A stretch of 64,000 nt of DNA, taken from NCBI GenBank assembly GCA_902500125.1, contig GCA_902500125.1_4132.1. One strand, given 5' to 3'. How positions within the stretch are numbered: the first letter of the stretch is position 1; each line of letters begins with the position of its first letter. Position numbers and translations under genes: made by a program. The notes below the pieces were generated by a model. It was not told the DNA's origin, searched no databases, and saw only the letters and a list, made by a program, of their open reading frames with translations. This DNA is from Escherichia coli. Lineage in GTDB: Bacteria > Pseudomonadota > Gammaproteobacteria > Enterobacterales > Enterobacteriaceae. This document shows, piece by piece, positions 1 through 14,874 of the stretch.

Positions 1-168
1 GGTTATAAGAAAGAAGTACAGAAGATTGATGTATTTGTTCGTGCATTAAGTCCAACACATGCACTATTTAAATTGTTTGATGAAGTAACTAAGTACAACA
101 CACCAAAAACACAACGCTATATTGAAACAGTACATAGTGTAATACTCACTGAATATGATGGAGAATGA
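1..168 (+). CDS. 3' end of ORF continuing upstream of window (hypothetical)
   Basis: Open frame from window edge to TGA at 166-168. Confidence 0.3.
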   Translation, partial: GYKKEVQKIDVFVRALSPTHALFKLFDEVTKYNTPKTQRYIETVHSVILTEYDGE

Positions 169-171
169 CAA

Positions 172-390
172 ATGAATTTATATCTAGTTGAAGGGTCAGT
201 ACAAGTATCCAAGCAAGACGGAGAAGGGTATCGTTTTTCACATGTAGAATATTTTAAGTACGTAGTAAAGGCCGATGGTCAGTACGACGCAGAAATTCAG
301 GTTGAAGAATCATTCCGTAAGAAGAATGATATTGGTAAATTTGAATACCAAGACTTACAATTCACTGTATGGCCTAGCATTAATGACTAA
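172..390 (+). CDS. hypothetical protein (72 aa)
   Basis: Track ORF; ATG 4 nt after upstream stop. Confidence 0.5.
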   Translation: MNLYLVEGSVQVSKQDGEGYRFSHVEYFKYVVKADGQYDAEIQVEESFRKKNDIGKFEYQDLQFTVWPSIND

Positions 391-391
391 G

Positions 392-595
392 ATGTGGTGG
401 TGTCATGGTGTCTACAATGTCTATGAATATGGTAGATTCAAAATGAGCAGCACCTATGCCAGACGTGTTAATGCGAAAAACCAAGTTGATGCTGCTTGTG
501 AGATTGTAGAGTGGTATGCAGAGTTCAATGCAATTGATTTTATGTACGAAATAGTTACAATAAATGTTGTACAAATTGACACGTCTTTGATATAA
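392..595 (+). CDS. hypothetical protein (about 67 aa)
   Basis: In-frame ATG just after previous stop inside track ORF 275..595. Confidence 0.4.
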   Translation: MWWCHGVYNVYEYGRFKMSSTYARRVNAKNQVDAACEIVEWYAEFNAIDFMYEIVTINVVQIDTSLI

Positions 596-629
596 TAACT
601 GTATCAAAACAACCGCAACTGAGGATACT

Positions 630-1292
630 ATGTTAGTTAATCTTAATTTCATCACTTCTCCTGATTGGGCATTGCGTGGTGTTTCTTTGAACTTTAAAGA
701 AACTAATTTCGACTACATTGGTGATTGTACTTTAGTTAATGCTACATTTGATCCTCATCATCCTTTTTGGGCTGAAATTCATGATCCTAATGTAAACAAT
801 AGTACATCTGTTATGACTATTGTACAGACGAAACATACAGGTATCCTCGCAGGTTACAGACCAGGACATGCGATTGAACACTTCACTGATTATGATGTAG
901 TAGATGAGTATCCAATGATCCATGAAGATGGAAGTTTATACACGTCAGAAGACTTCCGTGCTATCTTTAATAGTACTGATGACATTCTACCAAGTGGTCG
1001 TCCACGCCCTGAGTCTTATCTTATGCACTCGTCTTATGGTGTAGCAGATACGCTTGAACAGATTTTGACGAAGTACAAGAACCTTATTGAAGGTCCTGAA
1101 GAAATTGTCATGTGCTATCATCCAGTACTGAAGTCTGACCAACCAGAGAGTGGTGGGTGGCGTTGGCATAAGAATGGTGAGTACATCGGTACTAAGCGTA
1201 GTAAAGAACGCTTTGAGTACTTGTATGATGAGCCAGATGTTGAGGTTGTTTTATGTTATAATTTTCTTAAGGTGAAAAAGAAATGTATCTAG
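630..1292 (+). CDS. hypothetical protein (220 aa)
   Basis: Track ORF; GAGGA RBS upstream. Confidence 0.6.
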   Translation: MLVNLNFITSPDWALRGVSLNFKETNFDYIGDCTLVNATFDPHHPFWAEIHDPNVNNSTSVMTIVQTKHTGILAGYRPGHAIEHFTDYDVVDEYPMIHEDGSLYTSEDFRAIFNSTDDILPSGRPRPESYLMHSSYGVADTLEQILTKYKNLIEGPEEIVMCYHPVLKSDQPESGGWRWHKNGEYIGTKRSKERFEYLYDEPDVEVVLCYNFLKVKKKCI

Positions 1293-1525
1293 TATTGAGT
1301 TTTGTAGTTGCATTATTGTTTATGTTCTACCCTACACTAGTAGCAGTAGCCACTAAACGAAAGCTGGTGGATATCACTACTGTATTCTTGCTAAACGTGG
1401 CACTCGTTCTAGTGTCTATTATCATTCCCGTGAGCTTTACGGTTATTGATATTATTTCGGTATTACTCTTCGTGTTAAGTTATCTTATGCTTATTGAAGA
1501 AACAAATGTTGACAAACGTTCGTAG
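1283..1525 (+). CDS. small membrane protein
   Basis: Track ORF; two hydrophobic segments; overlaps upstream stop. Confidence 0.5.
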   Translation: MYLVLSFVVALLFMFYPTLVAVATKRKLVDITTVFLLNVALVLVSIIIPVSFTVIDIISVLLFVLSYLMLIEETNVDKRS

Positions 1526-1582
1526 TACTGTATAATGGTTCCTGTAGTCTGAAACTTAACACTTAAACTTGAGGTAAAAAAT

Positions 1583-1909
1583 ATGCTATCAGTACTAATT
1601 TCAATTCCGTCTTTAATTCTGATTTGGCTTCTGGTTTACGAATGCTTTATTACTGATGATAATGATAAAAAAGAGTTCTCTGAGTTGTTTATGCTTGATT
1701 CACCGATTGTGCGTATTTTCTATACAGTCGTTGTGGTTTCAGTAATTGTATGGGTTTTGAGTTTTATCTTCCCACTCGGTGCAGTAGTTAAAACTTTGGA
1801 TTTAGTTGAGAACTTTGTTGCAATTATGTGGCTAATCAAAGCACTATTTGCAGGAAATGTTAAAATTTGGATTGATATTATCAAATTCAAGTTCACGAAT
1901 AAGATGTAA
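1583..1909 (+). CDS. membrane protein (108 aa)
   Basis: Track ORF; hydrophobic helices; GAGG RBS. Confidence 0.55.
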   Translation: MLSVLISIPSLILIWLLVYECFITDDNDKKEFSELFMLDSPIVRIFYTVVVVSVIVWVLSFIFPLGAVVKTLDLVENFVAIMWLIKALFAGNVKIWIDIIKFKFTNKM

Positions 1910-1933
1910 CAGTGAAAATATCTCTATAGTATT

Positions 1934-1970
1934 AAATACTTCTGTACATATATATAGTACAGAAGTATTT
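1934..1970 (+). terminator. perfect inverted repeat hairpin (terminator-like)
   Basis: TACTTCTGTAC-(ATATATATA)-GTACAGAAGTA after gene end. Confidence 0.45.
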
Positions 1971-1987
1971 CTCGTTAGAGGTTTGTT

Positions 1988-2347
1988 ATGAAGAGTTATA
2001 TAAAATTAATAGCACTTGTGTGTGCATTATTTTCATGTTTTAGTTATGGTGCAGCAGCAGAAACATATTGTCGTAGTACTAAGGGAACGTGGCATGTATT
2101 GACTAACGACCCTAGAAATGGTAAAAATATAGTTGTTGATGGTGTGATTTATCGTTTTAAAGTAGCAAGTATTATCGGTAATAAAAAAATCTCGACTTAT
2201 AGAGATGATTCTGGTACATTAGCAAACGTAATATTAATTGTAGACCCAAGAACTGGTAATGGTGATATCTATATAGTAATTTACTTGGACTCATCGGTAC
2301 GCCGTGACCTAGATATAGATAAATTGAACTTACACTGTGAAATATAG
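1988..2347 (+). CDS. secreted protein with signal peptide
   Basis: Track ORF; N-term MKSYIKLIALVCALFSCFSYGAAA. Confidence 0.55.
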   Translation: MKSYIKLIALVCALFSCFSYGAAAETYCRSTKGTWHVLTNDPRNGKNIVVDGVIYRFKVASIIGNKKISTYRDDSGTLANVILIVDPRTGNGDIYIVIYLDSSVRRDLDIDKLNLHCEI

Positions 2348-2358
2348 GACTTAAAAAA

Positions 2359-2736
2359 ATGGTAAACACTATTTTACTTTTGTTGTTGAATATTCCAATT
2401 ATTCTGTCTTTTTTAATTTCTATTTTTATGGCAGGATATTGTTTAGTTGCAGTAATTCATTTCATTTTAACAAACAAATATGTCCTAATTTCTAAGCTTG
2501 ATTCTATTTTTGCTTGCGATTCGATTGCTTATAACTTGTGGTTAATTTGTTCTTGCATTATGGGAGTAACTTTCCTTCTGTATGTATTTGATGTCCTTGA
2601 CCAAAAGTTCGTATATATCAGTACTGGATTGGCTCTTTATCCTGCTACGTGGTACTTGATTTACGTTGGTGATATATGGTATAGTACTTATAAAGAATAT
2701 CAGTACAAGAAATCACTTAACGTTGGAGGAAAATAA
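2359..2736 (+). CDS. membrane protein (125 aa)
   Basis: Track ORF; multiple hydrophobic segments. Confidence 0.55.
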   Translation: MVNTILLLLLNIPIILSFLISIFMAGYCLVAVIHFILTNKYVLISKLDSIFACDSIAYNLWLICSCIMGVTFLLYVFDVLDQKFVYISTGLALYPATWYLIYVGDIWYSTYKEYQYKKSLNVGGK

Positions 2737-2738
2737 TC

Positions 2739-3089
2739 ATGAAAATTATTTTATTTTTTGTATGTATGTTAATGTGTGGATTGTCATATGCTGAACCATT
2801 GGAAGGTTTAGTTTGTACAGATGGTAATATTAAACATATCTATCAAGGTGATAGTGACGATCGAGATATTGTATATATTGATGGACAATCATATACGTTT
2901 GTTAAAGAGCATACAGTAGGCGACATTAGCTTCACTGAGTTTTCTAACGACACAGACCCTAACTTCTTAGCGTTTATTGAAGTAGATGTATATGAAGATA
3001 GTAATGGTACACAATATGCTAAATTAGTTATGATGCGTCGTGGTGCTAAAGAAACTAGTTTTGGTGGCTTGTGTAAATATAAGGATTGA
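2739..3089 (+). CDS. secreted protein with signal peptide
   Basis: Track ORF; N-term MKIILFFVCMLMCGLSYA; GGAGG RBS. Confidence 0.55.
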   Translation: MKIILFFVCMLMCGLSYAEPLEGLVCTDGNIKHIYQGDSDDRDIVYIDGQSYTFVKEHTVGDISFTEFSNDTDPNFLAFIEVDVYEDSNGTQYAKLVMMRRGAKETSFGGLCKYKD

Positions 3090-3093
3090 TATT

Positions 3094-3285
3094 ATGTTGA
3101 TTTATCAAAGTGATAATATTCGTGTTATGCAGCATCCCTACTTACAAATCTTTGATGTGCAGCAGTATATGGAAGGTGATGACCCAAGAACCTATGGTCG
3201 TAAGTATGATTACTTCACTGTAAAGCAGTGTAATAATATTAACGAAGTACGACAATTAGTTCAAGAACTTCAAAACAAAGGTTGA
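3094..3285 (+). CDS. hypothetical protein (63 aa)
   Basis: Internal ATG of track ORF 3040..3285 with AAGGA RBS; stop lies in terminator stem. Confidence 0.45.
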   Translation: MLIYQSDNIRVMQHPYLQIFDVQQYMEGDDPRTYGRKYDYFTVKQCNNINEVRQLVQELQNKG

Positions 3286-3311
3286 CTTCGGTCAGCCTTT
3301 TTTGTTATAAT
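3278..3311 (+). terminator. terminator hairpin (UUCG loop) fused to promoter
   Basis: GGTTGAC-TTCG-GTCAGCC plus T-run; TTGACT of stem is -35, TATAAT about 17 nt downstream. Confidence 0.6.
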
Positions 3312-3339
3312 TCTCTTAATAAATTAGAGGATTTTAATT

Positions 3340-3780
3340 ATGTATGTATATCGTTTTGAACTTAAATTTAGTTACATTGAACCTAACTTAGATCCTGCAC
3401 GAACTGTAGGTCCGTTTGCACGGTATTCAACCAGATACAGTACTAAAAATGGATTTGACCGTTTGCTTATGACTACACCTTCTCAATTCCAACCTGAACC
3501 AACTGAGGATGGGATCTATTCAATCAAAAGTGGATGGGTATTTGGCTGTCAAAGTTTGAAAGATTTGTTCAGATTCTTCACTATGGACTTAGGTAAATTG
3601 CATCGTGCTGGGTTTGCTATATCTGTATATGAAGTTCCAGACCACCATGTAGACATTGGTCGTAATCAGGTTCAGTACTATTGCGGTAGTGCTAAATTAG
3701 TTCGTATCATGTCAGTTAAGGAAGCAAAGGATGAGTTCCGACAAAGTAAAAGAGAAACACATGAGGTAATATATGGATAA
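3340..3780 (+). CDS. hypothetical protein (146 aa)
   Basis: Track ORF; GAGG RBS. Confidence 0.6.
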   Translation: MYVYRFELKFSYIEPNLDPARTVGPFARYSTRYSTKNGFDRLLMTTPSQFQPEPTEDGIYSIKSGWVFGCQSLKDLFRFFTMDLGKLHRAGFAISVYEVPDHHVDIGRNQVQYYCGSAKLVRIMSVKEAKDEFRQSKRETHEVIYG

Positions 3781-4117
3781 AACTCAAATAGAATTAAAGA
3801 AATTTGTTTCATTCTATCTTCCTGATGACCCACGTAATTCACAAAAAGATATTGAATATTATAATATCCTATCTAAACAGTTAATGAGAAAGTTTCAACA
3901 GTGTTTAACTATATTCAATACAGATGGAAGACGTAGATACCGAATCGTTTCAATGAATGATGAAAACGCAAATTTCTTTGATTACGATGTAGTTTTTAGA
4001 GCATATAATGATGATCGTATAAAATTAAATTATGATCAAATTATACTTGACCTGAATGTTATATGTGTTATAATCACTCACGTAGCCGAACTTAATGGTT
4101 TTAAAGAATGGTATTGA
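3773..4117 (+). CDS. hypothetical protein (114 aa)
   Basis: Track ORF; start overlaps upstream stop. Confidence 0.55.
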   Translation: MDKTQIELKKFVSFYLPDDPRNSQKDIEYYNILSKQLMRKFQQCLTIFNTDGRRRYRIVSMNDENANFFDYDVVFRAYNDDRIKLNYDQIILDLNVICVIITHVAELNGFKEWY

Positions 4118-4131
4118 ATAGAGGATAACAT

Positions 4132-4398
4132 ATGAAGCTTAAATTACAATATAATGGATTTACTTTACGTAATGATACTGAATTTATTAATCGTTCTCCT
4201 GGTGCTGAACTGTTTTTACGAGAGATGAACATTCCTTTCATCATTACTACAGTGGGCGACCGTGAAGTTCTACAATATGCAGAGCATCCGATTATTGATG
4301 TTCCTTGGTACTCTGAGCATATGTACATGGATATGGCACGTCGCTACAACTGTAAGTTCGTAGTTGAAGGTGATAAAATTACAGTCGAATTTAAATAA
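4132..4398 (+). CDS. hypothetical protein (88 aa)
   Basis: Track ORF; GAGGA RBS. Confidence 0.55.
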   Translation: MKLKLQYNGFTLRNDTEFINRSPGAELFLREMNIPFIITTVGDREVLQYAEHPIIDVPWYSEHMYMDMARRYNCKFVVEGDKITVEFK

Positions 4399-4409
4399 GG
4401 TAAATTAAA

Positions 4410-4703
4410 ATGATCAGTACTTCAGTTAATGAAAGCATCGTCGCTGACGTAGAAATGGTTAAAGAATGTGCAGATGAAACTCTTCGTGATATGTACATTA
4501 ATGATTTAATTACTGAATACGGTAGTCGTGGTGTACACGAATTTATTCGTTTAAGTGGAGAGTTGATGAAAAATCGAATTCGTATGAAGCTTAACGTACA
4601 TCCAAAAGCATGGGCATTTACATTAAAATACGCAGAAGATATTGTGAATTTGCGTCGAACTGAAGTATATGAACGTTTACACAATGGTATGTTAGATAAA
4701 TGA
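4410..4703 (+). CDS. hypothetical protein (97 aa)
   Basis: Track ORF. Confidence 0.55.
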   Translation: MISTSVNESIVADVEMVKECADETLRDMYINDLITEYGSRGVHEFIRLSGELMKNRIRMKLNVHPKAWAFTLKYAEDIVNLRRTEVYERLHNGMLDK

Positions 4704-4712
4704 TTGTAAAAT

Positions 4713-4739
4713 AGGAATTCTTAAATGAATTCCTTTTTG
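4713..4739 (+). terminator. rho-independent terminator
   Basis: AGGAATTC-TTAAAT-GAATTCCT hairpin followed by TTTTT. Confidence 0.6.
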
Positions 4740-4755
4740 TTTATAAGGTATAGTA

Positions 4756-4977
4756 ATGAAATATATAGTACTTGTACTGATATTATTCAGTACTGTTGTA
4801 AGTGCTAAACAAAAAGAATATATTAAATGTATAAATTATGAAGAGAAATATGTTGAAACATATAAAAAAAGTATAATTAAAAACGTTTCGATTACTAACA
4901 GAGCAACAATCATTGTACTTAAAAATGGGTTAATTATGCTATATAAACCACACGTTAAATGTGAAATTATTAATTGA
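4756..4977 (+). CDS. small secreted protein
   Basis: Track ORF; N-term MKYIVLVLILFSTVVSA. Confidence 0.5.
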   Translation: MKYIVLVLILFSTVVSAKQKEYIKCINYEEKYVETYKKSIIKNVSITNRATIIVLKNGLIMLYKPHVKCEIIN

Positions 4978-4984
4978 GGAAATT

Positions 4985-5557
4985 ATGAATCGTAAAGGTC
5001 GTTTTAAAGTATCAAAAAAGAACAAAAGTTCTAGGTTTAAACCTATTGTTTTAACAGTTAAATCTAACAAAGATTTAACTGCACTTAGTAAAAAGATAAT
5101 TTCATCTAAGATTGAAGTATCATACGTAAATTCATTAAAATATATGAATGTCAAACCACTGGACCAACTCATTTCACTTATATTTGAACGTAATGATTTT
5201 GAGATATCAGTAGATGATTATAGAGCCTATAATGCTGGTTTCATTAATGTTACTTGTAATAAAAAACTAACTGAGTTGGAAAATTTGTCATGTATAATAA
5301 ATCTAGATAAAGGTGTTGTGAAGTACCATTTTGTACATTTCACTAATATCAATAATGGAATGGGTGTACAATCCAGACCTATAGTGCCTACGTGTGATGT
5401 TACTAAATTAGCAAAGCTCAATGATGAAGAATATTTTCAAGAAAGCATTGTAACTGAGCATTTAGATGATATAATAGCTACTTACAAAGAATGCATATGG
5501 GTGTTGAATGCTATAAAACCTAAATTGTGTTTAATGAATATTGTTCGTGATTTATGA
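4985..5557 (+). CDS. family C paralog (EEYFQESI motif)
   Basis: Internal ATG of track ORF 4961..5557 with GAGGA RBS; NDEEYFQESIV matches 59-63.7 kb family. Confidence 0.55.
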   Translation: MNRKGRFKVSKKNKSSRFKPIVLTVKSNKDLTALSKKIISSKIEVSYVNSLKYMNVKPLDQLISLIFERNDFEISVDDYRAYNAGFINVTCNKKLTELENLSCIINLDKGVVKYHFVHFTNINNGMGVQSRPIVPTCDVTKLAKLNDEEYFQESIVTEHLDDIIATYKECIWVLNAIKPKLCLMNIVRDL

Positions 5558-5570
5558 ATGGGGAATCGTA

Positions 5571-6014
5571 ATGAGTTGGGTAAATGTTAATAGTATTGAA
5601 CTTAACGAACAAGATATTTTTGCATTTGTAAATTTAACTAATAACACAGTACTAAAAGGGCGTTTGTTCAGTGCGAGTGATGGATATAAATGGATCTCTT
5701 TGATGGATGATAGTGGTGTGATTTATAATGTAATGCAATTACCCCAATGGGTATATAGTAACACTGCCGACGATGTTCTTGCCGCAGTTATGCGTGAGTT
5801 TGAAAAACTCCCAGGTGGTGATATCAAAAACAAAGTTTTTAATGCAGAACGGAAAAATTATACAGCACAGCAGTTGGAATCCCTTGCCATTGCTGCTTAT
5901 CAAGCTGCTATTAAGAAGCCAGAGTGCGTTATTCTTAAGTATGTACCAGACTTAAAACTTACGTTGGAAGACATGGATGCATTCATTTTTACATCTGAAC
6001 TTGATCAGTACTAA
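5571..6014 (+). CDS. hypothetical protein
   Basis: Internal ATG of track ORF 5541..6014 placed after upstream stop. Confidence 0.5.
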   Translation: MSWVNVNSIELNEQDIFAFVNLTNNTVLKGRLFSASDGYKWISLMDDSGVIYNVMQLPQWVYSNTADDVLAAVMREFEKLPGGDIKNKVFNAERKNYTAQQLESLAIAAYQAAIKKPECVILKYVPDLKLTLEDMDAFIFTSELDQY

Positions 6015-6129
6015 TTTAACTTTGGGACAACCATTCTTATTATGATATAATGTTTTATGTCATTCGATATAAATGACAACGGAACTATAAATATTATAGT
6101 AAAATTTATCTCTTATAGGAGTTATAAAA

Positions 6130-6513
6130 ATGGTTGGTAAATGGAATAAGAAAGATCCATCACATGATGTTGATATTTCTGGTCTAGACAATGCACATAA
6201 GCACAAGTATCTAGATTCACTAGGTCTTCTAAAACCAGACCAAAGTCTTGCACATGATCGTCCATCCCGTGAAAAAGCATTTAGCCTAGAATCACTAGGC
6301 CATGAGCTTAATCGTGTGTTTGAGGATCACCCAATCTATGTACGTGATATTATCGAGAAACTTAAAGTAACTCCTAAAGAGCACTTTAAAGCAACTGTAC
6401 ACTCTGCATTCCGTGCATTACATGAATCTCTAAAGAAAACTCACAATCTTCGTAAAATTCATGATGAAATCGTGAATGCAATCGAAAGTGAAAAACATAA
6501 GTTCAAGAAGTAA
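6130..6513 (+). CDS. hypothetical protein, paralog of N-terminus of 7880..9118
   Basis: Track ORF; KHKYLDSLGLL and KVTPKEHFK match KLRYVNSLGLL and QSVPKEELK in 7880..9118. Confidence 0.55.
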   Translation: MVGKWNKKDPSHDVDISGLDNAHKHKYLDSLGLLKPDQSLAHDRPSREKAFSLESLGHELNRVFEDHPIYVRDIIEKLKVTPKEHFKATVHSAFRALHESLKKTHNLRKIHDEIVNAIESEKHKFKK

Positions 6514-6520
6514 TAAAAAT

Positions 6521-6552
6521 GGTTGACTAAGGTCAGCCCTTTGTTGTATCAT
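6521..6552 (+). terminator. terminator hairpin fused to promoter-like element
   Basis: GGTTGAC-TAAG-GTCAGCC hairpin; TTGACT and TATCAT spaced about 18. Confidence 0.45.
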
Positions 6553-6581
6553 AACTTCTCAATATAACTGAGGTATCATAT

Positions 6582-6695
6582 ATGCAAGGTTTGAAATTTG
6601 TAGTTGCTGCCCTAATCGCTGCTGTTGTAGTGGGTACAGTATGTTATTCAATTGACACCTATATCAATACACCTAGTGTTGAACAAACCAAATAA
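6582..6695 (+). CDS. small hydrophobic peptide (37 aa)
   Basis: ATG after TGAGG RBS; MQGLKFVVAALIAAVVVGTV...; below track size cutoff. Confidence 0.3.
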   Translation: MQGLKFVVAALIAAVVVGTVCYSIDTYINTPSVEQTK

Positions 6696-6703
6696 GGGAT
6701 ATC

Positions 6704-6967
6704 ATGGCTGAAACATTATCACTATATGCGTTAGTACTGTTATTTGTCGGATTTCTTCCCGCACTCATTACAGCCATTCGTGTTGTTAAACATGAAGCTG
6801 CATTGATTGTATGTAGTATTGGGTCGAACATTCTATTGTATTTCTTTTTGACAAATACTATTGTACTGTTTGCTTTCTTTATCATGATTCTGTGGGTACT
6901 TGTAATTCTCGGATTCTTCATTTGGTCATTGGTTGATCCTAAGAAAAAATCAGGAGAAGTGAAATGA
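6704..6967 (+). CDS. membrane protein (87 aa)
   Basis: Track ORF; hydrophobic. Confidence 0.5.
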   Translation: MAETLSLYALVLLFVGFLPALITAIRVVKHEAALIVCSIGSNILLYFFLTNTIVLFAFFIMILWVLVILGFFIWSLVDPKKKSGEVK

Positions 6968-7260
6968 AATTAATTATAGCAATGATAATGTGTTTGGCTT
7001 TCCCTGTACTGGCTACTCCTAATCTGGACTGCACACTGTTGCGTTCAGATGGTGACACACTTGAAATCAACACATATGAACTCTTTGGTCCAAGTGTAGT
7101 GGAGAATGAAACCACCTACAATTTCAAAGCTATTGACTTTGAAGGTAATGTTCCAGTACTAACTACAATGACTATTGACAAAACTACTTTACTCGGACGA
7201 ATCACCACACAACGCGGAGAAAGTAAAACATTCACAGCGAAAGCTGACTGTAACTACTAA
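6964..7260 (+). CDS. secreted protein with signal peptide
   Basis: Track ORF; ATGA overlap with upstream; N-term MKLIIAMIMCLAFPVLA. Confidence 0.55.
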   Translation: MKLIIAMIMCLAFPVLATPNLDCTLLRSDGDTLEINTYELFGPSVVENETTYNFKAIDFEGNVPVLTTMTIDKTTLLGRITTQRGESKTFTAKADCNY

Positions 7261-7282
7261 TGGTATAGTACAGTGAAAATAG

Positions 7283-7312
7283 GGTTGACTTCGGTCAACC
7301 TTTATATATAAT
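7283..7312 (+). terminator. terminator hairpin (UUCG loop) fused to promoter
   Basis: GGTTGAC-TTCG-GTCAACC perfect stem, T-run, TATAAT downstream. Confidence 0.6.
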
Positions 7313-7325
7313 GGAAGAAATAAAC

Positions 7326-7883
7326 ATGGAACGTTGGAAATTAATTCCTGATTATGACTATTCAATTTCTGATCATGGAAGAGTAAGAAACGAACAAACT
7401 GGATATATAAGTTGTGGATTTAAAAATAAAGATGGGTATGTGAAGGTCGATTTGTATCGCAATTCTGTGAAAAATAGAAAGGCGATTCATCGACTAGTAG
7501 CTGAAGCATTTTTACCACCACCCACACAGAAACAGTTACAGTGGGCGAGTAGAACAAAGAAAAAAGTTGTTCACATAAACCATAAAGATTGTAATAGAAG
7601 TAACAATCACTATTTGAATTTGGAATGGAACACAGCATCTGAAAACGTACTATATTCTTATTCACATGGTAACGCAACAACTAATCGTGGTGCTGCTGTG
7701 TTGACATGGGAAATTGTAAGAGAAATAAGAAAAGATTATAATGATAATTATAATGATGTGATAGAATATGCACGAGAAAATTGTAATAAATACCGTGTAT
7801 GTAAAAAAAACAATACGTCGTATTTTATACAATCAAACATGGATAGAGGATTAAAAATATGCCACAAGATAATGGGGATATGA
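7326..7883 (+). CDS. HNH homing endonuclease (NUMOD4-like N-terminus)
   Basis: ERWKLIPDYDYSISDHGRVRN and HINHKDCNRSNNHYLNLEWNTASEN motifs; start could be 7311. Confidence 0.8.
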   Translation: MERWKLIPDYDYSISDHGRVRNEQTGYISCGFKNKDGYVKVDLYRNSVKNRKAIHRLVAEAFLPPPTQKQLQWASRTKKKVVHINHKDCNRSNNHYLNLEWNTASENVLYSYSHGNATTNRGAAVLTWEIVREIRKDYNDNYNDVIEYARENCNKYRVCKKNNTSYFIQSNMDRGLKICHKIMGI

Positions 7884-9118
7884 AACATCGTAATGGTGGA
7901 CTAGTACAACACTCGGATAAATGGGCCGACCGAAATCGTCGCAAAAATAGTTATCAAGCAGGACAAGGTTCACGTGGTTCCAGAAACCAAGGAACGGGAC
8001 TTGCTGGTAAGGCAAACGCAGAAGCAGGTGAAGTTAAGAGTACTGAGAACATGACTGAGCTAGAAAAGCTACGTTATGTTAATTCATTGGGACTTCTTAA
8101 TGCTACACAAAAACAACGTCTAGCTGATATGGAACGTGAAGAAAAAGAAAAGTCTGCTCCTGCGAAAGAAGAACCAAAACAAGAAGCACCAAAGGCGGTT
8201 AACCCTGTCAAAGAACTGTCTGATAAGTTAGGTAAGATTTTTGCTAATAAACCACAACTTATCCAAGGTATTGTGAAAGAATTGCAATCTGTACCTAAAG
8301 AAGAATTAAAAGTCAAAGCACAAGCTGTACTTGATGCAATGAGTGGAAATACCAGTACTGAACCAACTGAAGTATTCAGTACTATAATGCGTGCACTTGA
8401 AGGTACGCAACAAGGTGATGTGCCTGCACAAGAGGAAGTAAGTCTTGAAAGCGTACTTAAAACATTTGATAGTATTGGTAAAGAAGACCGTGCTAATGCT
8501 CAACAAGTTAAGAATGTACTAGCTAAGTTAGAAAACCGTCTGGAAGGTAAAGACGATAAGATTAAATTAGTATCTGATGCAGTTAACGATGCACTTAAAT
8601 CTTATGTACAAGGTGAAAAGAGTCGTTTTGTAACTGCAATGGATGCTGCATTCAATACTATGAAAAAGTATGAAGCTGATCATGGTGAGAAGGTTACACG
8701 AGATGGTTATCTGATGCGTGATGATGAAGAAGGTGCAGTAGAACAGAATGATGTTCATTCAGACGAAGAAATTGATGACATGGAAGCTGAACTGTCACAA
8801 GACCGCCAAATGACTGAAAAATCCCATAACGAACTACAGAAATTAATGCAATGGGTTGCAGATGTTGGTGAAAAAGCTGGTGCTGATAAGAAGAGTATAA
8901 ACCGAAATCTTAGTTGGATTAAAGATAAAGTTGGTAACAACGCTCGTAAACTACAAAAAGCGTGGACTGATGTAGTGAATGGTGCTGTTGACATTGATGT
9001 TGAATCCGGTGAGGCATATGATTATGCATTGACTACACTTGATGACTCTTTCCGTGATTACGAAAATGGAAATGTAACTCCTTGGGAAAAGGATATCATG
9101 AGCAAATACGGTAAATGA
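7880..9118 (+). CDS. acidic, coiled-coil-rich hypothetical protein
   Basis: Track ORF 7859..9118; ATGA overlap with HNH stop chosen as start; N-terminal region paralogous to 6130..6513. Confidence 0.6.
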   Translation: MKHRNGGLVQHSDKWADRNRRKNSYQAGQGSRGSRNQGTGLAGKANAEAGEVKSTENMTELEKLRYVNSLGLLNATQKQRLADMEREEKEKSAPAKEEPKQEAPKAVNPVKELSDKLGKIFANKPQLIQGIVKELQSVPKEELKVKAQAVLDAMSGNTSTEPTEVFSTIMRALEGTQQGDVPAQEEVSLESVLKTFDSIGKEDRANAQQVKNVLAKLENRLEGKDDKIKLVSDAVNDALKSYVQGEKSRFVTAMDAAFNTMKKYEADHGEKVTRDGYLMRDDEEGAVEQNDVHSDEEIDDMEAELSQDRQMTEKSHNELQKLMQWVADVGEKAGADKKSINRNLSWIKDKVGNNARKLQKAWTDVVNGAVDIDVESGEAYDYALTTLDDSFRDYENGNVTPWEKDIMSKYGK

Positions 9119-9127
9119 TAAAACAAA

Positions 9128-9160
9128 AGGTTGACTTCGGTCAGCCTTTTTTGTTATGAT
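9128..9160 (+). terminator. terminator hairpin (UUCG loop) fused to promoter
   Basis: GGTTGAC-TTCG-GTCAGCC plus TTTTTT; TTGACT as -35. Confidence 0.6.
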
Positions 9161-9188
9161 GTTGGTATTAACTACAGAGGATAAAGTA

Positions 9189-9830
9189 ATGACTAAGCAA
9201 GACATATTCAAAACTTTAATTGACATTTTGCGTCCATCAAAAACTCGTTGTGCGATGGAGTTTGATATTCCTTATGCTGAACGCGTAATCTTTCCACAAG
9301 TTAAAGCTGCTGGACTTACTTTGCTTGGAATGGGGATGTACTCTGTAGTAGTTGAACATAAAAACTATCCTGGACGTGCATTTAAAGTAACCACTTCACG
9401 CTGGGATGGTTTTCGTGCTTATGCAAAGTACTGCATTGAAAACGCAGGAACCAAGTTTCTTCCAGTGATCTACAGTGCCAACGAACAAGGAAACTTTGGA
9501 TGGTATGAGATGGACAAGTACTATCCTATAATTAAACAAAAAAATAATTATGATGACTTTGTTAGTACTAAAATTGGAGATTTATATTCTTATGCACATG
9601 CTGGTCAGTACGCTACTTCAGTGAATGATATGCGTGGAAATTCTGAAGAGATTGCTATTGCAACGGTCGCTGCTAACATCATGAAAGAGTTTCACGGGCG
9701 TTTTGTACCAGACATTCATTCAAGTAATGTGATGATGGATAAAGATGGCAATGTATTCATTACTGATCCTCTTTCGTGTGATGTACGTAGAGAAATACCA
9801 GTTACTGAAGAAGATCCAGTTTTTTATTGA
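9189..9830 (+). CDS. protein-kinase-like protein
   Basis: GMGMYSVV..AFKV Gly-loop/Lys and DIHSSNVMMDKDGNVFITD catalytic-loop-like motifs; GAGGA RBS. Confidence 0.5.
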   Translation: MTKQDIFKTLIDILRPSKTRCAMEFDIPYAERVIFPQVKAAGLTLLGMGMYSVVVEHKNYPGRAFKVTTSRWDGFRAYAKYCIENAGTKFLPVIYSANEQGNFGWYEMDKYYPIIKQKNNYDDFVSTKIGDLYSYAHAGQYATSVNDMRGNSEEIAIATVAANIMKEFHGRFVPDIHSSNVMMDKDGNVFITDPLSCDVRREIPVTEEDPVFY

Positions 9831-9891
9831 CAGAACTGATGTTCTGGTGTATTCTTAATAAACCATAAAAATTGCGGTAAAGGATAAAATC

Positions 9892-10173
9892 ATGCGTTCA
9901 TTTGAAAACTTAATAGGTAAGCATCTTTTATCTGAAATTGATGCAGACGTTAAAGAATTATCCAAATCAAAAAGTTACATTCATTTGGATGAACTGTTTA
10001 TTAAGTACGGTGAGATTGGTTTTAAGTCATTATTTGTTTTTACTATGAAAGTACATAGTTTAAAGTACTTCGATTTGAGTTCTAAAGATGGTGAACCGAA
10101 TCTATATTACATGTATTACCTTAAGAACAAAGATGAAGCTAATACATTACTCTCTGAATATATATTGGGGTAA
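9892..10173 (+). CDS. hypothetical protein (93 aa)
   Basis: Track ORF; AAGGA RBS. Confidence 0.5.
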   Translation: MRSFENLIGKHLLSEIDADVKELSKSKSYIHLDELFIKYGEIGFKSLFVFTMKVHSLKYFDLSSKDGEPNLYYMYYLKNKDEANTLLSEYILG

Positions 10174-10175
10174 AA

Positions 10176-10514
10176 ATGGAACAATATTTTGAATTAATAA
10201 ACAAAGTATCATTTTATGTAGTATCTTTGGTTTGGGTGTATTATATGTTTTGCTATATTATTGCATTCTTCCGATATACTACTTTATATGAACGTATCTA
10301 CTATGATGCCCCAATTTCATTCTTGATGTTTTGTGCATGTACGTGGGGAATATTAGAAGTACTGATATGTGGGTATAGTACTGATGAATTAAATCTGGTA
10401 TCGGTGTTGACTGGGTTTTCATTTGTTGTTATGATAGCTGCCGTTCCAGTATGGTTGTTCTTTGGACTAGTTCATCGCATTGATATATGGCGTTCTAATA
10501 TCCCTGAAAAGTAA
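10176..10514 (+). CDS. membrane protein, paralog family (C-terminal RxN[ILM]PE)
   Basis: Track ORF; hydrophobic helices; ends WRSNIPEK. Confidence 0.55.
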   Translation: MEQYFELINKVSFYVVSLVWVYYMFCYIIAFFRYTTLYERIYYDAPISFLMFCACTWGILEVLICGYSTDELNLVSVLTGFSFVVMIAAVPVWLFFGLVHRIDIWRSNIPEK

Positions 10515-10517
10515 GGA

Positions 10518-10865
10518 TTGGAAATGATTTATTACACTAACATGTTTGCCTATGCTGTTGCTTGCATTTACATTGTTTACTTCTTATTCGGTGGAGTACT
10601 GTGCTTCTTTAAGTACAAAACGTTGTTCAACCGAATGTACCCAAATCATCCAATTGTAGTTGTACTTTTGATTCTTTCAGTTTCTCAAATAATCGTTGAA
10701 ACTACAATGGGTATCAGTAGTGTACATTATAGTTTTGGCACTATAGTAATTATTACTATGCTTATTGCATACATTTTAGTACTTGGATATGGTATCTTTG
10801 GTAATATTGGTATGAAAATGTATCATCGAATTAAAACATTACGTGATAATCTACCGGAGCGTTGA
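10518..10865 (+). CDS. membrane protein, paralog family
   Basis: Track ORF; ends LRDNLPER. Confidence 0.55.
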   Translation: MEMIYYTNMFAYAVACIYIVYFLFGGVLCFFKYKTLFNRMYPNHPIVVVLLILSVSQIIVETTMGISSVHYSFGTIVIITMLIAYILVLGYGIFGNIGMKMYHRIKTLRDNLPER

Positions 10866-10866
10866 T

Positions 10867-11211
10867 ATGTATAATTTGAACCTAATCTCATATATTATAA
10901 CAACACTGTTTACATTCTATGCCTTTGTTGGTATAATCCTACTGTACTTTAAATTTTATAAAGTGTTTAACCGTTTCTATCCTTCAATGGAGAATGAGTT
11001 TTTCTTTGTGTTGTACGTAGGTTACACATTAATGGCTACATGTTTCACTGTAGCCGATGGTGTCATCGGCATTAAAACTGATTCCCCAAATGGTAGTACG
11101 CTGGTTGCATTTATTCTTACTGGATTCCTTGCAACTTATATTGCCTTCATTACAACATGGTCAGTGGTTGAATTTCTCTTGCGACTACGAAAGAATATGC
11201 CGAATCGATAG
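10867..11211 (+). CDS. membrane protein, paralog family
   Basis: Internal ATG of track ORF 10843..11211 after GGAG; ends LRKNMPNR. Confidence 0.55.
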   Translation: MYNLNLISYIITTLFTFYAFVGIILLYFKFYKVFNRFYPSMENEFFFVLYVGYTLMATCFTVADGVIGIKTDSPNGSTLVAFILTGFLATYIAFITTWSVVEFLLRLRKNMPNR

Positions 11212-11220
11212 GAGACATAT

Positions 11221-11475
11221 ATGTTTGCGTTGCGTAATAAAAACACTAAAGAATTATTATGTATTGATACCGTATGGGATTGTGCGGGATCAACTACAGT
11301 TCTTGAAGAAGGAACTGGATATTGCGTGTTTGTTGTTCATGATAGGAATGAACTCGAATTATTACTTGCTGAGTTCAATGCTGGTGGTAATCCTAACAGT
11401 ACTGAATACCCTGAGATTATCAATCCAGCACCACCAGGCTCTTATGAAATTCTACAACTGTGGGAGTTGAAGTAA
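11221..11475 (+). CDS. hypothetical protein (84 aa)
   Basis: Track ORF; GGAG RBS. Confidence 0.5.
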   Translation: MFALRNKNTKELLCIDTVWDCAGSTTVLEEGTGYCVFVVHDRNELELLLAEFNAGGNPNSTEYPEIINPAPPGSYEILQLWELK

Positions 11476-11855
11476 TGCGTCAAATGCACAAAGTAACCGA
11501 GCTAAACAAGCGTCTGGTTAAACAATCAATGTTCGAGGATAAAGAGTCTTATTATAACTTTAAACGTGCTGTAGAGGCTGCTATCCACATTCAGAAGCTT
11601 AAAGAACGTGGTTGTATTATTCTGGAAAATGGGTCGGAAGTTGTAACGGATGACTTTAGTGTAGCGTTTGATGTTTCACCTGACGGGACGCTATCAATGC
11701 CCCGCTTAGGAACTGGAAACATGACTGTTTGGGTTGGCTTCACTATGGGGAATGTACCTGGTACTGTGTACGTAGATGATGCGGAATTGAAAGACAGTTT
11801 CAAAAACTTATCTTATCTTGAACCACAATACGCACATGAAATGAATTTATTTTGA
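11475..11855 (+). CDS. hypothetical protein
   Basis: TAATG overlap start inside track ORF 11460..11855. Confidence 0.5.
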   Translation: MRQMHKVTELNKRLVKQSMFEDKESYYNFKRAVEAAIHIQKLKERGCIILENGSEVVTDDFSVAFDVSPDGTLSMPRLGTGNMTVWVGFTMGNVPGTVYVDDAELKDSFKNLSYLEPQYAHEMNLF

Positions 11856-11931
11856 GTTGACAAACACATTCAGTACTGTATAATGCTTATCAAGGGGATG
11901 AACTTCTCATCCCTACAATCGAGGAACTACC

Positions 11932-12486
11932 ATGATTACTTTTAAGAAAACTGCTAACCACATCCATGAAATCTACATTAACGGTCACAAAGCTGGCCTT
12001 CTTCGTTTACTCGCCCATCATCCTGATGTTACCGTATCTGATAATGAACCTAAAGATTGGCGTGTATTTTTCTTTGGAAAGTACAGTGATTTTCAAGTAT
12101 CAAACCTGAAGAACATTCGTTCAGTATGCACGTTAACTGAAATTAAAGAAAAGTTAGAAAAAGCATTGAAAACTAATCCAGATGGTGTTCTTCCACCTGA
12201 TAACTTTGTAGAGAAAGGTTATGCATTAGCTCATTTCAAAGATGGTACTATTCAATCTATCAGTACTGAATATGAATATCAATGGACTGAGTACTTCACT
12301 TATGGATCGCGTAATACATTGATGGCTTCACGTAGTAAATTGGAAGAAGTACTGACTCGTATGAATGAACGCGAACGTCAATTTTATGACAAACCAGAAA
12401 TGTGGAGTTCAACTTACATTGACCGTATTGACTATGTTATTATGACTCCAATCTTTGACACTGCTTACTATGATTCTTTGAAATAA
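11932..12486 (+). CDS. hypothetical protein (184 aa)
   Basis: Track ORF; GAGGA RBS. Confidence 0.6.
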   Translation: MITFKKTANHIHEIYINGHKAGLLRLLAHHPDVTVSDNEPKDWRVFFFGKYSDFQVSNLKNIRSVCTLTEIKEKLEKALKTNPDGVLPPDNFVEKGYALAHFKDGTIQSISTEYEYQWTEYFTYGSRNTLMASRSKLEEVLTRMNERERQFYDKPEMWSSTYIDRIDYVIMTPIFDTAYYDSLK

Positions 12487-12497
12487 GGATAACTTAT

Positions 12498-12674
12498 ATG
12501 AAACTACGTACTCGTAATCGACTGATGGATGCACTGTACCATGAACAGCTTTCACTGAATGAAGTGAAGCGACAGTTAATGTACACATATCTGTTACCCG
12601 ATCGCATTGCAAAACAACGTGCTAAAGAATTGCTGAAAGAAGCAATCGAGTACTGGGAATCTGATTCGTACTAA
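12498..12674 (+). CDS. hypothetical protein (58 aa)
   Basis: ATG after AAGGA RBS; below track cutoff; coding-like composition. Confidence 0.4.
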   Translation: MKLRTRNRLMDALYHEQLSLNEVKRQLMYTYLLPDRIAKQRAKELLKEAIEYWESDSY

Positions 12675-12702
12675 TTGTCACGTTAATTAAGTGAGGCGAT
12701 AA

Positions 12703-12954
12703 ATGAAAATTTTATTAGTTCTAATACTACTAATTGTTTTACCATTTACGTTAGTATCCCCTGAACTTGCATGGAATGTGTTTGTGTACTTAGTATGTAC
12801 TATTGTAGTAAATGGTATCTTGTTCTTAGTTCTATTCATAAATGGAATAGGACACGGTGGAGGATGGACCAGTACTGCTGATATTGTACATAAAACCACT
12901 ATGTCTTTATTTGTAATGTGGAATTTATTCTGGACTTGGTTTGTGTTCTTCTAA
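12703..12954 (+). CDS. small membrane protein
   Basis: Track ORF; hydrophobic; GAGG RBS. Confidence 0.5.
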   Translation: MKILLVLILLIVLPFTLVSPELAWNVFVYLVCTIVVNGILFLVLFINGIGHGGGWTSTADIVHKTTMSLFVMWNLFWTWFVFF

Positions 12955-12962
12955 TTAAAAAT

Positions 12963-13334
12963 ATGAATATAGATTTGAAAGGTGCAACCCGAACTGTCAT
13001 ACTCATTGGGGAATATGCTATCAAGATTCCAACCTTTAAAAGTTGGAAGCTATTCTTAACAGGGATGATAGCTAACCTCAATGAACGTTCGTGGATGCAG
13101 TACTCCAATCGTAGTGATAGTAGTATCTGTCCTACGTTGTGGTCATCATGTACTGGACTAGTAACTGTACAGAAACGTTGTAAGCCAGTGCAACATAGGG
13201 GTTTATTTTGGGTGGAGTTGTGTGCTTTAGCATTGAATTCAGAGTTAAGTACTGACTTCTTCTATTCAGATGCGAAGCCAGAAAACTTTGGGTATCTGTG
13301 TGGTAAGTTGGTTAAACTTGATTATGGAGATTAA
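12963..13334 (+). CDS. mini protein-kinase-like protein
   Basis: GATRTVILIGEYAIK, DAKPENFG and KLDYGD in kinase motif order; internal ATG of track ORF. Confidence 0.45.
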   Translation: MNIDLKGATRTVILIGEYAIKIPTFKSWKLFLTGMIANLNERSWMQYSNRSDSSICPTLWSSCTGLVTVQKRCKPVQHRGLFWVELCALALNSELSTDFFYSDAKPENFGYLCGKLVKLDYGD

Positions 13335-13335
13335 T

Positions 13336-13605
13336 ATGTACGCATTGTATAATAAAGAAAAGAAACGATTTGCTAAGGTTGAAATTTCGATTGATACATT
13401 TGACATGTTGGAGTACTGTATTGTAACGGACTTATATGCTAACTTGTATTACGTTCTTGATGACGTATCAGTACTGCAACGATTGCTTGAGAATTCCAAA
13501 AGTCAATGCCAGGACATCCATGATGGTTCATCTTATGAAACACCTGAGTGTCCCCACGGGCAACTCGATGGGTATGAGATTGTTAAGTTGGGAATTGTTG
13601 AGTAA
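13336..13605 (+). CDS. hypothetical protein
   Basis: Internal ATG after GGAG within track ORF 13270..13605. Confidence 0.45.
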   Translation: MYALYNKEKKRFAKVEISIDTFDMLEYCIVTDLYANLYYVLDDVSVLQRLLENSKSQCQDIHDGSSYETPECPHGQLDGYEIVKLGIVE

Positions 13606-13670
13606 AAGGTATTGACACCGTACTCATTTAACTGTATTATGTATGTACACCAACTAATGAGGAATCGGAA

Positions 13671-14030
13671 ATGGCATCTTTATCTGAAATCACTGAACTG
13701 AATCCACTGGTAATTAGTACTGTTCAACGCACCAAGACGTTTTACTTCCGTCCTGCTGATGGATGGAAACGTGGAATGAATGGTGACTATCGAGTACTGG
13801 AAGATTCGCTCATCGAGCGTATCAACTCTGAACTACAGAAGTATGAAGGTGTTAAAGTTGTCCGTTCAACTTCTCGTTATTTTGAGTACTACATTGAGTC
13901 TTCAACTGTAAATGAAAACTCATCATTCTCGGTGGATAACACTGATATTCTTCGCAATGCAGTTGGTTTGCTATGCAACATTGCAGAAGAAATGGGATTA
14001 ACTATCACCACAATGAGTGAGTTAGAATAG
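13671..14030 (+). CDS. hypothetical protein (119 aa)
   Basis: Track ORF; GAGG RBS. Confidence 0.55.
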   Translation: MASLSEITELNPLVISTVQRTKTFYFRPADGWKRGMNGDYRVLEDSLIERINSELQKYEGVKVVRSTSRYFEYYIESSTVNENSSFSVDNTDILRNAVGLLCNIAEEMGLTITTMSELE

Positions 14031-14040
14031 AATAAAAAAA

Positions 14041-14073
14041 GGGTTGACTTAGGTCGGCCCTTTTGCTATTATA
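14041..14073 (+). terminator. terminator hairpin fused to promoter
   Basis: GGGTTGAC-TTAG-GTCGGCCC hairpin with wobble pairs, T-run, TTGACT/TATTAT. Confidence 0.55.
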
Positions 14074-14100
14074 TCTATATCGAAACGAAGGAGACAAACC

Positions 14101-14874
14101 ATGACCCGTCAAGAGAAAGCAATCCAAATCGAAAAAAACTTCAATAGCATGATGGCTGCACTGGAATGCCTTCTTGATACACAAGCTAACTCTATCAACT
14201 CTCTGATCGTATCAGGTAAAGGTGGTGTTGGTAAAACTTATAACGTTGACCAACGGTTGCAGAAAGCTGATGATAACTTTGAAATCGACTACAAGAAAAT
14301 CAGTGGTAAAGTAACTACTTTGGGTCTGTACGAAGCACTGTATCGTTCACGTCATGCCGCATCAGTACTGTTACTTGATGACGTTGATATCTTCTCTGAC
14401 GAGACTAATATTGATTTGCTTAAAGCTGTGTTGGATACGTCAGAGAAGCGTGTAGTTTCTTACGCGACTTCTGCTAAGTACCTGGAACAGCAGGGTATCC
14501 CTAAGCAGTTTGAATTCCGTGGTAAAGTAATCTTTCTGACTAACAAAAACCTGTCACAGATTGCTAAAGGTAAAAGCAGCTTAGCACCACACATCGATGC
14601 ACTGATCACTCGTAGTATCTTTGTTGACCTGCAACTGTTCACCAACGAAGAAGTGATGATTCACATTGAGAACATCATGAACAAAACTAACATCCTTGAA
14701 AACAATGGTGTTAACAAAAATGGTTGTAAAGCAATCCTGAATTGGATGCTGAACAACGAAGAACGTTTGCGTAGTCCATCACTGCGTATGCCAGTACTGA
14801 TCGCTGGTTTGTATAATAAATTCCCATACGATTGGGAATCAATGGCAGAGAATATGTTCCTTGAGAAAATTTAA
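14101..14874 (+). CDS. P-loop NTPase (Walker A GKGGVGKT, Walker B LLLDDVD)
   Basis: Track ORF; deviant Walker A resembling ParA/MinD-type; GGAG RBS. Confidence 0.65.
   Translation: MTRQEKAIQIEKNFNSMMAALECLLDTQANSINSLIVSGKGGVGKTYNVDQRLQKADDNFEIDYKKISGKVTTLGLYEALYRSRHAASVLLLDDVDIFSDETNIDLLKAVLDTSEKRVVSYATSAKYLEQQGIPKQFEFRGKVIFLTNKNLSQIAKGKSSLAPHIDALITRSIFVDLQLFTNEEVMIHIENIMNKTNILENNGVNKNGCKAILNWMLNNEERLRSPSLRMPVLIAGLYNKFPYDWESMAENMFLEKI

Follow-up and report, generated by a model that had tools for sequence, protein, structure and literature searches.

How did a gene for an HNH endonuclease come to lie beside two related virion-protein genes of a jumbo coliphage, and did it have any part in making that pair? 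The question is raised by a stretch of 64,000 nucleotides (hereafter the window) from contig GCA_902500125.1_4132.1 of the Escherichia coli assembly GCA_902500125.1. The original prediction, made from the letters of the window, placed a freestanding HNH/NUMOD4-type homing endonuclease gene between two paralogs, which we call the short (127 amino acids, aa) and the long (419 aa) paralog, and suggested endonuclease-associated duplication or gene conversion. With a probability of roughly 80%, we hold that the gene is a freestanding homing endonuclease gene of the I-HmuI-like kind, that homing with co-conversion produced the 1.4-kb tract of EC.P1-type sequence in which it lies, and that the paralogous pair has nothing to do with it. 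The features of the locus are listed in Table 1.

Judged by its sequence, the window is Asteriusvirus-type jumbo coliphage DNA (121Q/PBECO4/phAPEC6 group). In a collection of 50,697 phage records, window positions 5500-9900 match 45 records, which belong to jumbo phages of E. coli, Klebsiella and Salmonella, with 98.4% identity for the best; the top-ranked records that we opened, phAPEC6, ELP-22, 121Q, UE-S1 and vB_Ec-M-J, are all classified as Asteriusvirus. None of the 45 reaches a query coverage of at least 80%, and the window phage, a member of this group, is therefore absent from the collection. Identical copies of the 419-aa protein are present in E. coli assemblies and in read-archive assemblies.

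The domain identity of the endonuclease is clear. In the open reading frame (ORF) 7311/7326..7883, HNH_3 (PF13392) scores 30.0 bits against a Pfam gathering threshold of 24.8, and NUMOD4 (PF07463), at residues 7-49 of the 190-aa ORF, scores 30.5 bits against a threshold of 23.4. The protein also matches phrog_59 “HNH endonuclease” (E=8e-36), and its nearest solved structure is I-HmuI (1U3E, E=2e-5), where the H..N..NN..NL.W motif is aligned and the catalytic motif VVHINHKDCNRSNNHYLNLEW corresponds to LVVDHKDGNKDNNLSTNLRW of I-HmuI. The two Pfam domains above threshold, the phrog_59 match and the I-HmuI structure together confirm the predicted HNH/NUMOD4 type, and by domain content the gene belongs with the I-HmuI-like HNH_3/NUMOD4 enzymes. 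A start at 7326 is preferable to the ATG at 7311, because the best promoter-like site has its -10 hexamer around the latter. We found no second copy of the HNH gene within the window.

Among close relatives the gene is sporadically present at a conserved locus. It is carried by one of the 50,697 phage records (EC.P1), thus by one of the 45 that match the locus, and is absent from phAPEC6 and vB_Ec-M-J; comparing related phages in this way bears out the freestanding homing-type gene of the original prediction. As seen against HNH-less vB_Ec-M-J, the HNH-specific insert displaces ~62 bp, namely the virion gene's -10 element, 5' untranslated region and ribosome-binding site. The left edge of the insert at 7304 falls within the promoter spacer.

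The mosaic structure around the gene was analysed by sliding identity and informative sites, comparing the window with phAPEC6, EC.P1 and vB_Ec-M-J (L001, L003 and L004 in our alignments). Up to 6605 and from 8083 the window is 99-100% identical to HNH-less phAPEC6. In the tract 6611-8011 it instead shares 99-100% identity with EC.P1, and in the flanks of EC.P1 the identity to the window falls to 75-89%. The left junction lies in the 37-aa ORF, where phAPEC6-type informative sites give way to EC.P1-type sites between 6605 and 6611; on the right, the switch back takes place between 8011 and 8083. vB_Ec-M-J and seven other phages match window 6606-7303, with its two small genes, at 98-99% DNA identity and carry no HNH gene. 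EC.P1 and vB_Ec-M-J, the one of these compared in full, differ only over 7304-7969, that is, by the 555-bp HNH insert and the diverged first ~37 codons of the virion gene. Throughout the 12-kb phAPEC6-like block 1501-13500 the HNH patch is the only clearly EC.P1-like stretch; 12251-13250 is about equally close to both phages and the edge window 13501-13750 is marginally nearer to EC.P1 (85% vs 81%). We considered and rejected deletion of a cassette in phAPEC6-type phages, since the flanks 6611-6695 and 7909-8011 belong by type to the other lineage, and no deletion could bring this about. EC.P1 as the exact donor was also rejected: all HNH-plus recipients differ from it at 7981-7987, and their common states at these positions imply a donor that was EC.P1-like and other than EC.P1 itself.

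More than 12 other HNH-plus contigs, retrieved through the HNH-linked allele of the long paralog, carry nested donor tracts. Tract by tract we analysed 11 distinct HNH-plus genomes: ten loci (L007-L016) retrieved by the exact 419-aa allele (P0014), and metagenome contig L021, which has a further allele of 418 aa (P0016/P0017). HNH lies upstream in all ten loci of the first set, none of which is identical to the window. Outside the donor tract the 11 genomes are 98.1-99.7% identical to the window. Their left junctions fall into four classes, namely 6545/6550, 6605/6611 and 6614/6620, which are those of L007-L016, and one at or left of ~5510; the right junctions fall into two (8011/8083 and 8356/8365). 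In L021, a ~2.6 kb EC.P1-type tract (in L021 coordinates) stands in a 100% phAPEC6-type backbone; in window terms it reaches from at or left of ~5510 to 8356/8365 and encloses HNH, and the 418-aa allele is donor-type to about residue 165. HNH is inside every tract analysed, so that these loci, all retrieved via the HNH-linked allele, display co-conversion with variable tract ends. Homing with co-conversion classically leaves just this signature: nested tracts of varied length around a near-invariant endonuclease gene. The two small genes at 6704-7260 are 100% conserved in 10/10 loci. L021 has a deletion of ~270-290 bp at its positions ~2930-3040 (window ~6560-6900). The 37-aa ORF is gone as a result, the 87-aa ORF has lost the greater part of its length, and the 98-aa ORF is kept, from which it follows that the passenger genes can be dispensed with.

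The flanking genes are indeed paralogs. Pairwise BLASTP aligns the two proteins at 26% identity over 93 aa (E=5e-8), and phrog_16530 matches both, the 127-aa protein with E=2e-56 (profile 50-168) and the 419-aa protein with E=4e-33 (profile 9-164). A bridging homolog of 171 aa (P0013), in which the N-terminus of the long gene is joined to the body of the short gene, matches the short paralog at 1e-43 and the long one at 4e-32; a further match of the 127-aa protein is to a distant long-gene homolog in locus L019 (E=6e-8). At the DNA level the paralogs have no similarity (blastn word size 7, best E=0.71), and a tblastn search of the window with the 127-aa protein missed the 419-aa gene at E<1e-3, so the paralogy rests on profile and bridging evidence. 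Aligning the flanking genes thus upheld the predicted relationship, with corrections of detail: the second motif quoted for the pair, [KT]-x-P-K-E-[EH], is wrong and reads [TV]-P-K-E-[HE]; the long gene, given as 7880..9118, ends as predicted and starts at 7859 (MPQDNG..., with the “MP” start conserved across the family); and although both paralogs flank HNH, three more ORFs (6582-6695, 6704-6967 and 6964-7260) intervene on the side of the short one. A duplication of, or conversion between, these genes that is due to the endonuclease or that keeps it in place is suggested by their homology and by their positions on the two sides of HNH, no more than 1.4 kb apart; we consider it practically out of the question. 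Both paralogs are present in HNH-less phAPEC6, ELP-22, vB_Ec-M-J, 121Q and UE-S1, which takes away the ground for an endonuclease-associated duplication. Conversion between the paralogs was likewise rejected in view of ~26% protein identity without DNA similarity, and the part of the original prediction that survives is gene conversion between homologous loci of different phage lineages. Each paralog has a PHROG family of its own, and P0013 points to an old divergence. The pair represents a true but ancient duplication of a virion-protein module that is unrelated to the endonuclease.

If the paralogs are set aside, HNH could still be a mere passenger of an EC.P1-type patch that ordinary homologous recombination between co-infecting jumbo phages introduced with no HNH cut. 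Several observations lean this way and thereby weigh against homing. Window 1-1500 is also EC.P1-like (97-100% vs 80-92% to phAPEC6) and this similarity ends near 1500, 27.7-42 kb is 90-97% EC.P1-like, and the three-gene indel at 9105-9152 segregates independently of HNH. Inspection by eye of the ORFs at 1-2200, without a scan against family libraries, revealed none that looked like an endonuclease; from the 1-1500 block it follows that the lineages also recombine without an obvious endonuclease. In addition, the loci were found via the HNH-linked 419-aa N-terminus, so that the universal presence of HNH is partly built in; the right junction common to the ten P0014 loci follows from selection on an identical protein; one long introgression trimmed by back-recombination could give similar nested tracts; and the window copy of HNH is frameshifted and may be inactive now. 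The passenger explanation nevertheless seems unlikely to us. The patch is short (1.4-2.9 kb) and is the sole clearly EC.P1-nearer stretch in a 12-kb phAPEC6-like block, the genomes analysed tract by tract have at least four left and two right junctions with HNH always inside, and HNH is nearly identical across different backbones. It is a good deal more improbable still that HNH, instead of being purely selfish, has been domesticated or weaponised for the benefit of the phage, for instance in the exclusion of related co-infecting phages or in DNA processing. An HNH homing endonuclease is reportedly a mediator of competition between co-infecting phiKZ-like jumbo phages, and the HNH gene of the window stands under a strong early-type promoter. 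Its rarity (1/45 phage records) and the common frameshifted and deleted alleles argue against selection for retention, and such a role would in any case be compatible with homing.

We therefore retain homing with co-conversion, and from the sequence we infer cleavage, target site, co-transcription and direction of transfer as follows. The HNH gene is inserted between a sigma-70-like promoter/hairpin and the ribosome-binding site of the virion gene and, given this position, is probably co-transcribed with the virion gene, whose Shine-Dalgarno sequence the 3' end of HNH supplies. During a mixed infection the enzyme would cut or nick the HNH-less allele near the insertion point; the likeliest place for the predicted cut is the promoter-proximal/5' portion of the virion gene, which is diverged over 7859-7969 in the HNH-plus allele. 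The break would then be repaired from the HNH-plus genome, whereby HNH and flanking donor DNA are copied in. Since phAPEC6-type genomes lack 6704-7260, their nearest usable homology on the left is the 37-aa ORF, and the two small genes would be carried along as passengers; on the right, the first ~50 codons of the virion gene would be replaced by the donor version.

The 16 HNH copies that we compared differ by few single-nucleotide polymorphisms and by inactivating variants. The most frequent of the alleles of the poly-A run, A7, encodes 175 aa with the C-terminus ...KKTIRRILYNQTWIED and is carried by EC.P1, L008, L011-13, L015 and L021, among others. A8, found in the window, L009 and L014, is a +1 frameshift by which the C-terminal ...KKTIRRILYNQTWIED is swapped for 24 unrelated residues; L007 has A9. 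The phrog_59 match ends at residue 173/175 in the A7 form (125 bits) and at residue 162/185 in the A8 form of the window (110 bits), which implies that, barring a base-calling error at the extra A, the window copy is without its C-terminal tail; the intact helix-turn-helix (HTH)-like DNA-binding tail is present in the A7 allele and absent from the window copy. Further damage comprises a 12-bp HNH deletion in L010 and L016 and, in L024, a 186-bp deletion that takes out the catalytic motif. The window copy is probably decaying or inactive, or else its extra A is a homopolymer miscall. A near-invariant HNH together with decay alleles matches the known cycle of invasion and subsequent decay of homing endonuclease genes.

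The virion gene itself bears a mark of this history. Its first ~37 codons (7859-7969) form a diverged “type-2” N-terminus that is linked to HNH (MPQDNGDMKHRNGGLVQHSDKW..., compared with MPGQFTDKNGGNMAGHSDKW... in HNH-less genomes) and is similar to the N-terminus native to Klebsiella Alcyoneusvirus phages, for instance KP13-7 (~80% DNA identity). From this likeness, the element and its right flank probably came from a more distant lineage. We rejected the notion that the type-2 N-terminus is always endonuclease-linked, for it is native in L019 and KP13-7, which have no endonuclease gene directly upstream. In L018 (2-478 of ENA metagenome contig k141_135667), a more distant relative, a different endonuclease-like gene, with T5orf172 and GIY-YIG matches below threshold (E about 0.003-0.006), lies directly upstream of a long paralog with the type-2 N-terminus; homing elements may have a hotspot at this site. 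A third N-terminal variant (MPSDYNNGDMKHRNGAIVQHSKRKSEYRPAGNYHSGRKMSRNQ...) occurs in P0033, P0035-P0043, P0047 and P0051-52, which are homologs of 7859-9118, and looks like a frameshifted DKW..NRR..GSRGSRNQ stretch; in P0033 it is joined to a phAPEC6-type body. In view of P0033 and the N-terminal variants, the 5' end of the virion gene has seemingly been exchanged repeatedly.

These observations allow a wider and more tentative proposal, which we regard as possible but doubtful: HNH could be a vehicle by which homing repeatedly moves an accessory package and an alternative virion N-terminus between lineages. The package would consist of two membrane/secreted proteins (6704-7260), conceivably concerned with superinfection exclusion, and of the alternative N-terminus of a packaged virion protein; its transfer might even cross the Asteriusvirus/Alcyoneusvirus boundary, and the slippery A7/A8/A9 run might act as an off-switch for the nuclease after invasion. 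If this were true, the endonuclease would shape the diversity of virion proteins and accessory genes in jumbo phages beyond its own spread.

Table 1 Features of the HNH locus and its surroundings, in window coordinates.
Feature	Position	Strand	Remarks
Short paralog, 127 aa	6130..6513	+	virion protein, ortholog of phAPEC6 gp037c; phrog_16530
Hairpin GGTTGACTAAGGTCAGCC	6521..6552	+	contains -35-like TTGACT, then TATCAT; terminator/promoter-like intergenic element
Membrane ORF, 37 aa	6582..6695	+	phrog_35037
EC.P1-like donor-type tract in phAPEC6-like backbone	6611..8011	.	carries HNH; from sliding identity and informative sites
87-aa protein	6704..6967	+	apparently three hydrophobic membrane-spanning segments, judged by eye
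98-aa protein	6964..7260	+	signal-peptide-like N-terminus; second co-transferred cargo gene
Hairpin GGTTGACTTCGGTCAACC and sigma-70-like site TTGACT-16-TATAAT	7283..7312	+	11/12 matches, best in region
HNH-specific insert	7304..7858	+	555 bp in place of ~62 bp of HNH-less genomes
HNH_3+NUMOD4 endonuclease ORF	7326..7883	+	185 aa in window; majority allele of 175 aa would end at 7854
Poly-A run	7803..7810	+	A8 in window vs A7 in most copies
Long paralog, 419 aa	7859..9118	+	virion protein, ortholog of phAPEC6 gp035c; phrog_20398, phrog_16530
Junction with hairpin 9129-9146	9105..9152	+	three small genes of phAPEC6 (L001 4072-5109) absent
T7 gp0.7-like protein kinase	9156-9830

The neighbouring genes and elements complete this picture. 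The 127-aa protein is 98-99% identical to its phAPEC6 and 121Q orthologs, the 419-aa protein matches phrog_20398 with E=9e-170, and phAPEC6 gp037c and gp035c are 96-98% identical to the window paralogs. In phAPEC6 virions both were found by electrospray ionization tandem mass spectrometry (ESI-MS/MS), gp037c with 5 peptides and 48% coverage and gp035c with 8 peptides and 28.8% coverage (PMC7247149). The label “chromosome segregation protein / SbcC / SMC” on gp035c has no Pfam support and was rejected; it is probably a false hit caused by a charged, coiled-coil-like composition. The 87-aa gene has its home in the EC.P1/vB_Ec-M-J lineage, and phAPEC6-type phages lack it. Its product matches no Pfam or PHROG family, and without such support we did not adopt the label “immunity to superinfection” from the vB_Ec-M-J annotation (EcMJ_540). 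In the distant locus L019, the long paralog is preceded by a homolog of the 98-aa protein with 43% identity.

The hairpin GGTTGACTNNGGTCARCC occurs in six copies on the + strand of the window (3280, 6521, 7283, 9129, 14042 and 42464), where 0 are expected by chance. The hairpin holds a -35-like TTGACT, and after the hairpin come a T-rich stretch and a -10-like hexamer; in these phages it seems to combine a terminator with an early promoter. The window also lacks three small genes that separate virion gene and kinase in phAPEC6, 121Q and several HNH-plus loci; whether a genome has them is independent of HNH. The same 48-bp hairpin-containing sequence stands at both ends of the three-gene segment in phAPEC6, which suggests a repeat-mediated deletion. 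Farther to the right, window ~14000-14750, 18750-19500 and 25500-26000 are 66-70% identical to, or have no match in, the fetched phAPEC6 and EC.P1 stretches; these are hypervariable or replaced segments.

Taken as a whole, the locus is a natural record of homing in a ~350-kb jumbo coliphage, with an HNH-less allele, an HNH-plus donor, recipients with nested tracts and decayed copies. It shows that neighbouring genes and part of a virion-protein gene are dragged between lineages by homing elements, and it corrects the notion that the neighbouring paralogs arose via the endonuclease. This is relevant to the reading of mosaicism in jumbo phages and to the design of phage cocktails, in which co-infecting relatives swap markers. 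Freestanding HNH genes that vary between close relatives have been described in Rak2-like and Asteriusvirus jumbo phages, namely in CBB (CBB_420/528/535; PMC5259590) and in fEgEco12 (Gp520/Gp570; PMC13070987). The genes of CBB and fEgEco12 belong to the same phage group and gene class as the window HNH and lie at other loci, and the nearest jumbo-phage homologs of the window HNH, in KP13-7 (42% identity) and TH47 (39%), are likewise found elsewhere in their genomes. We came upon no account, in the literature searched, of this insertion ahead of the gp035c ortholog or of the conversion tracts around it. The case is a clear but ordinary one of homing and involves no new mechanism.

Among characterized enzymes, the closest in architecture are those of the I-HmuI/I-HmuII type from the Bacillus phages SPO1 and SP82, which have the same HNH_3 and NUMOD4 pair. 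The N-terminal NUMOD4 and the H-N-N motif align, albeit at low identity between I-HmuI and the window HNH, and the small size (~175 aa) and the C-terminal HTH-like tail of the majority HNH allele fit this type. I-HmuI differs in lying within a group I intron of a DNA polymerase gene, whereas the window HNH is freestanding, between a promoter and a virion-protein gene. Freestanding endonucleases of T4-like phages (Seg, Mob) cause marker exclusion and co-conversion between T2 and T4, and the allele beside the endonuclease gene is diverged. The Seg and Mob genes resemble the locus described here in their intergenic position, in their variability among close relatives and in the co-conversion of flanking markers with variable tract ends, although Seg enzymes are of the GIY-YIG family and Mob enzymes of a different HNH subfamily than the window HNH. 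In contrast to the T4-like cases, the gene resides in an Asteriusvirus jumbo phage, and its transfer took with it two unrelated small genes as well as the N-terminus of a packaged virion protein. By analogy, we propose that the locus works like the freestanding Seg and Mob endonucleases of the T-even phages.

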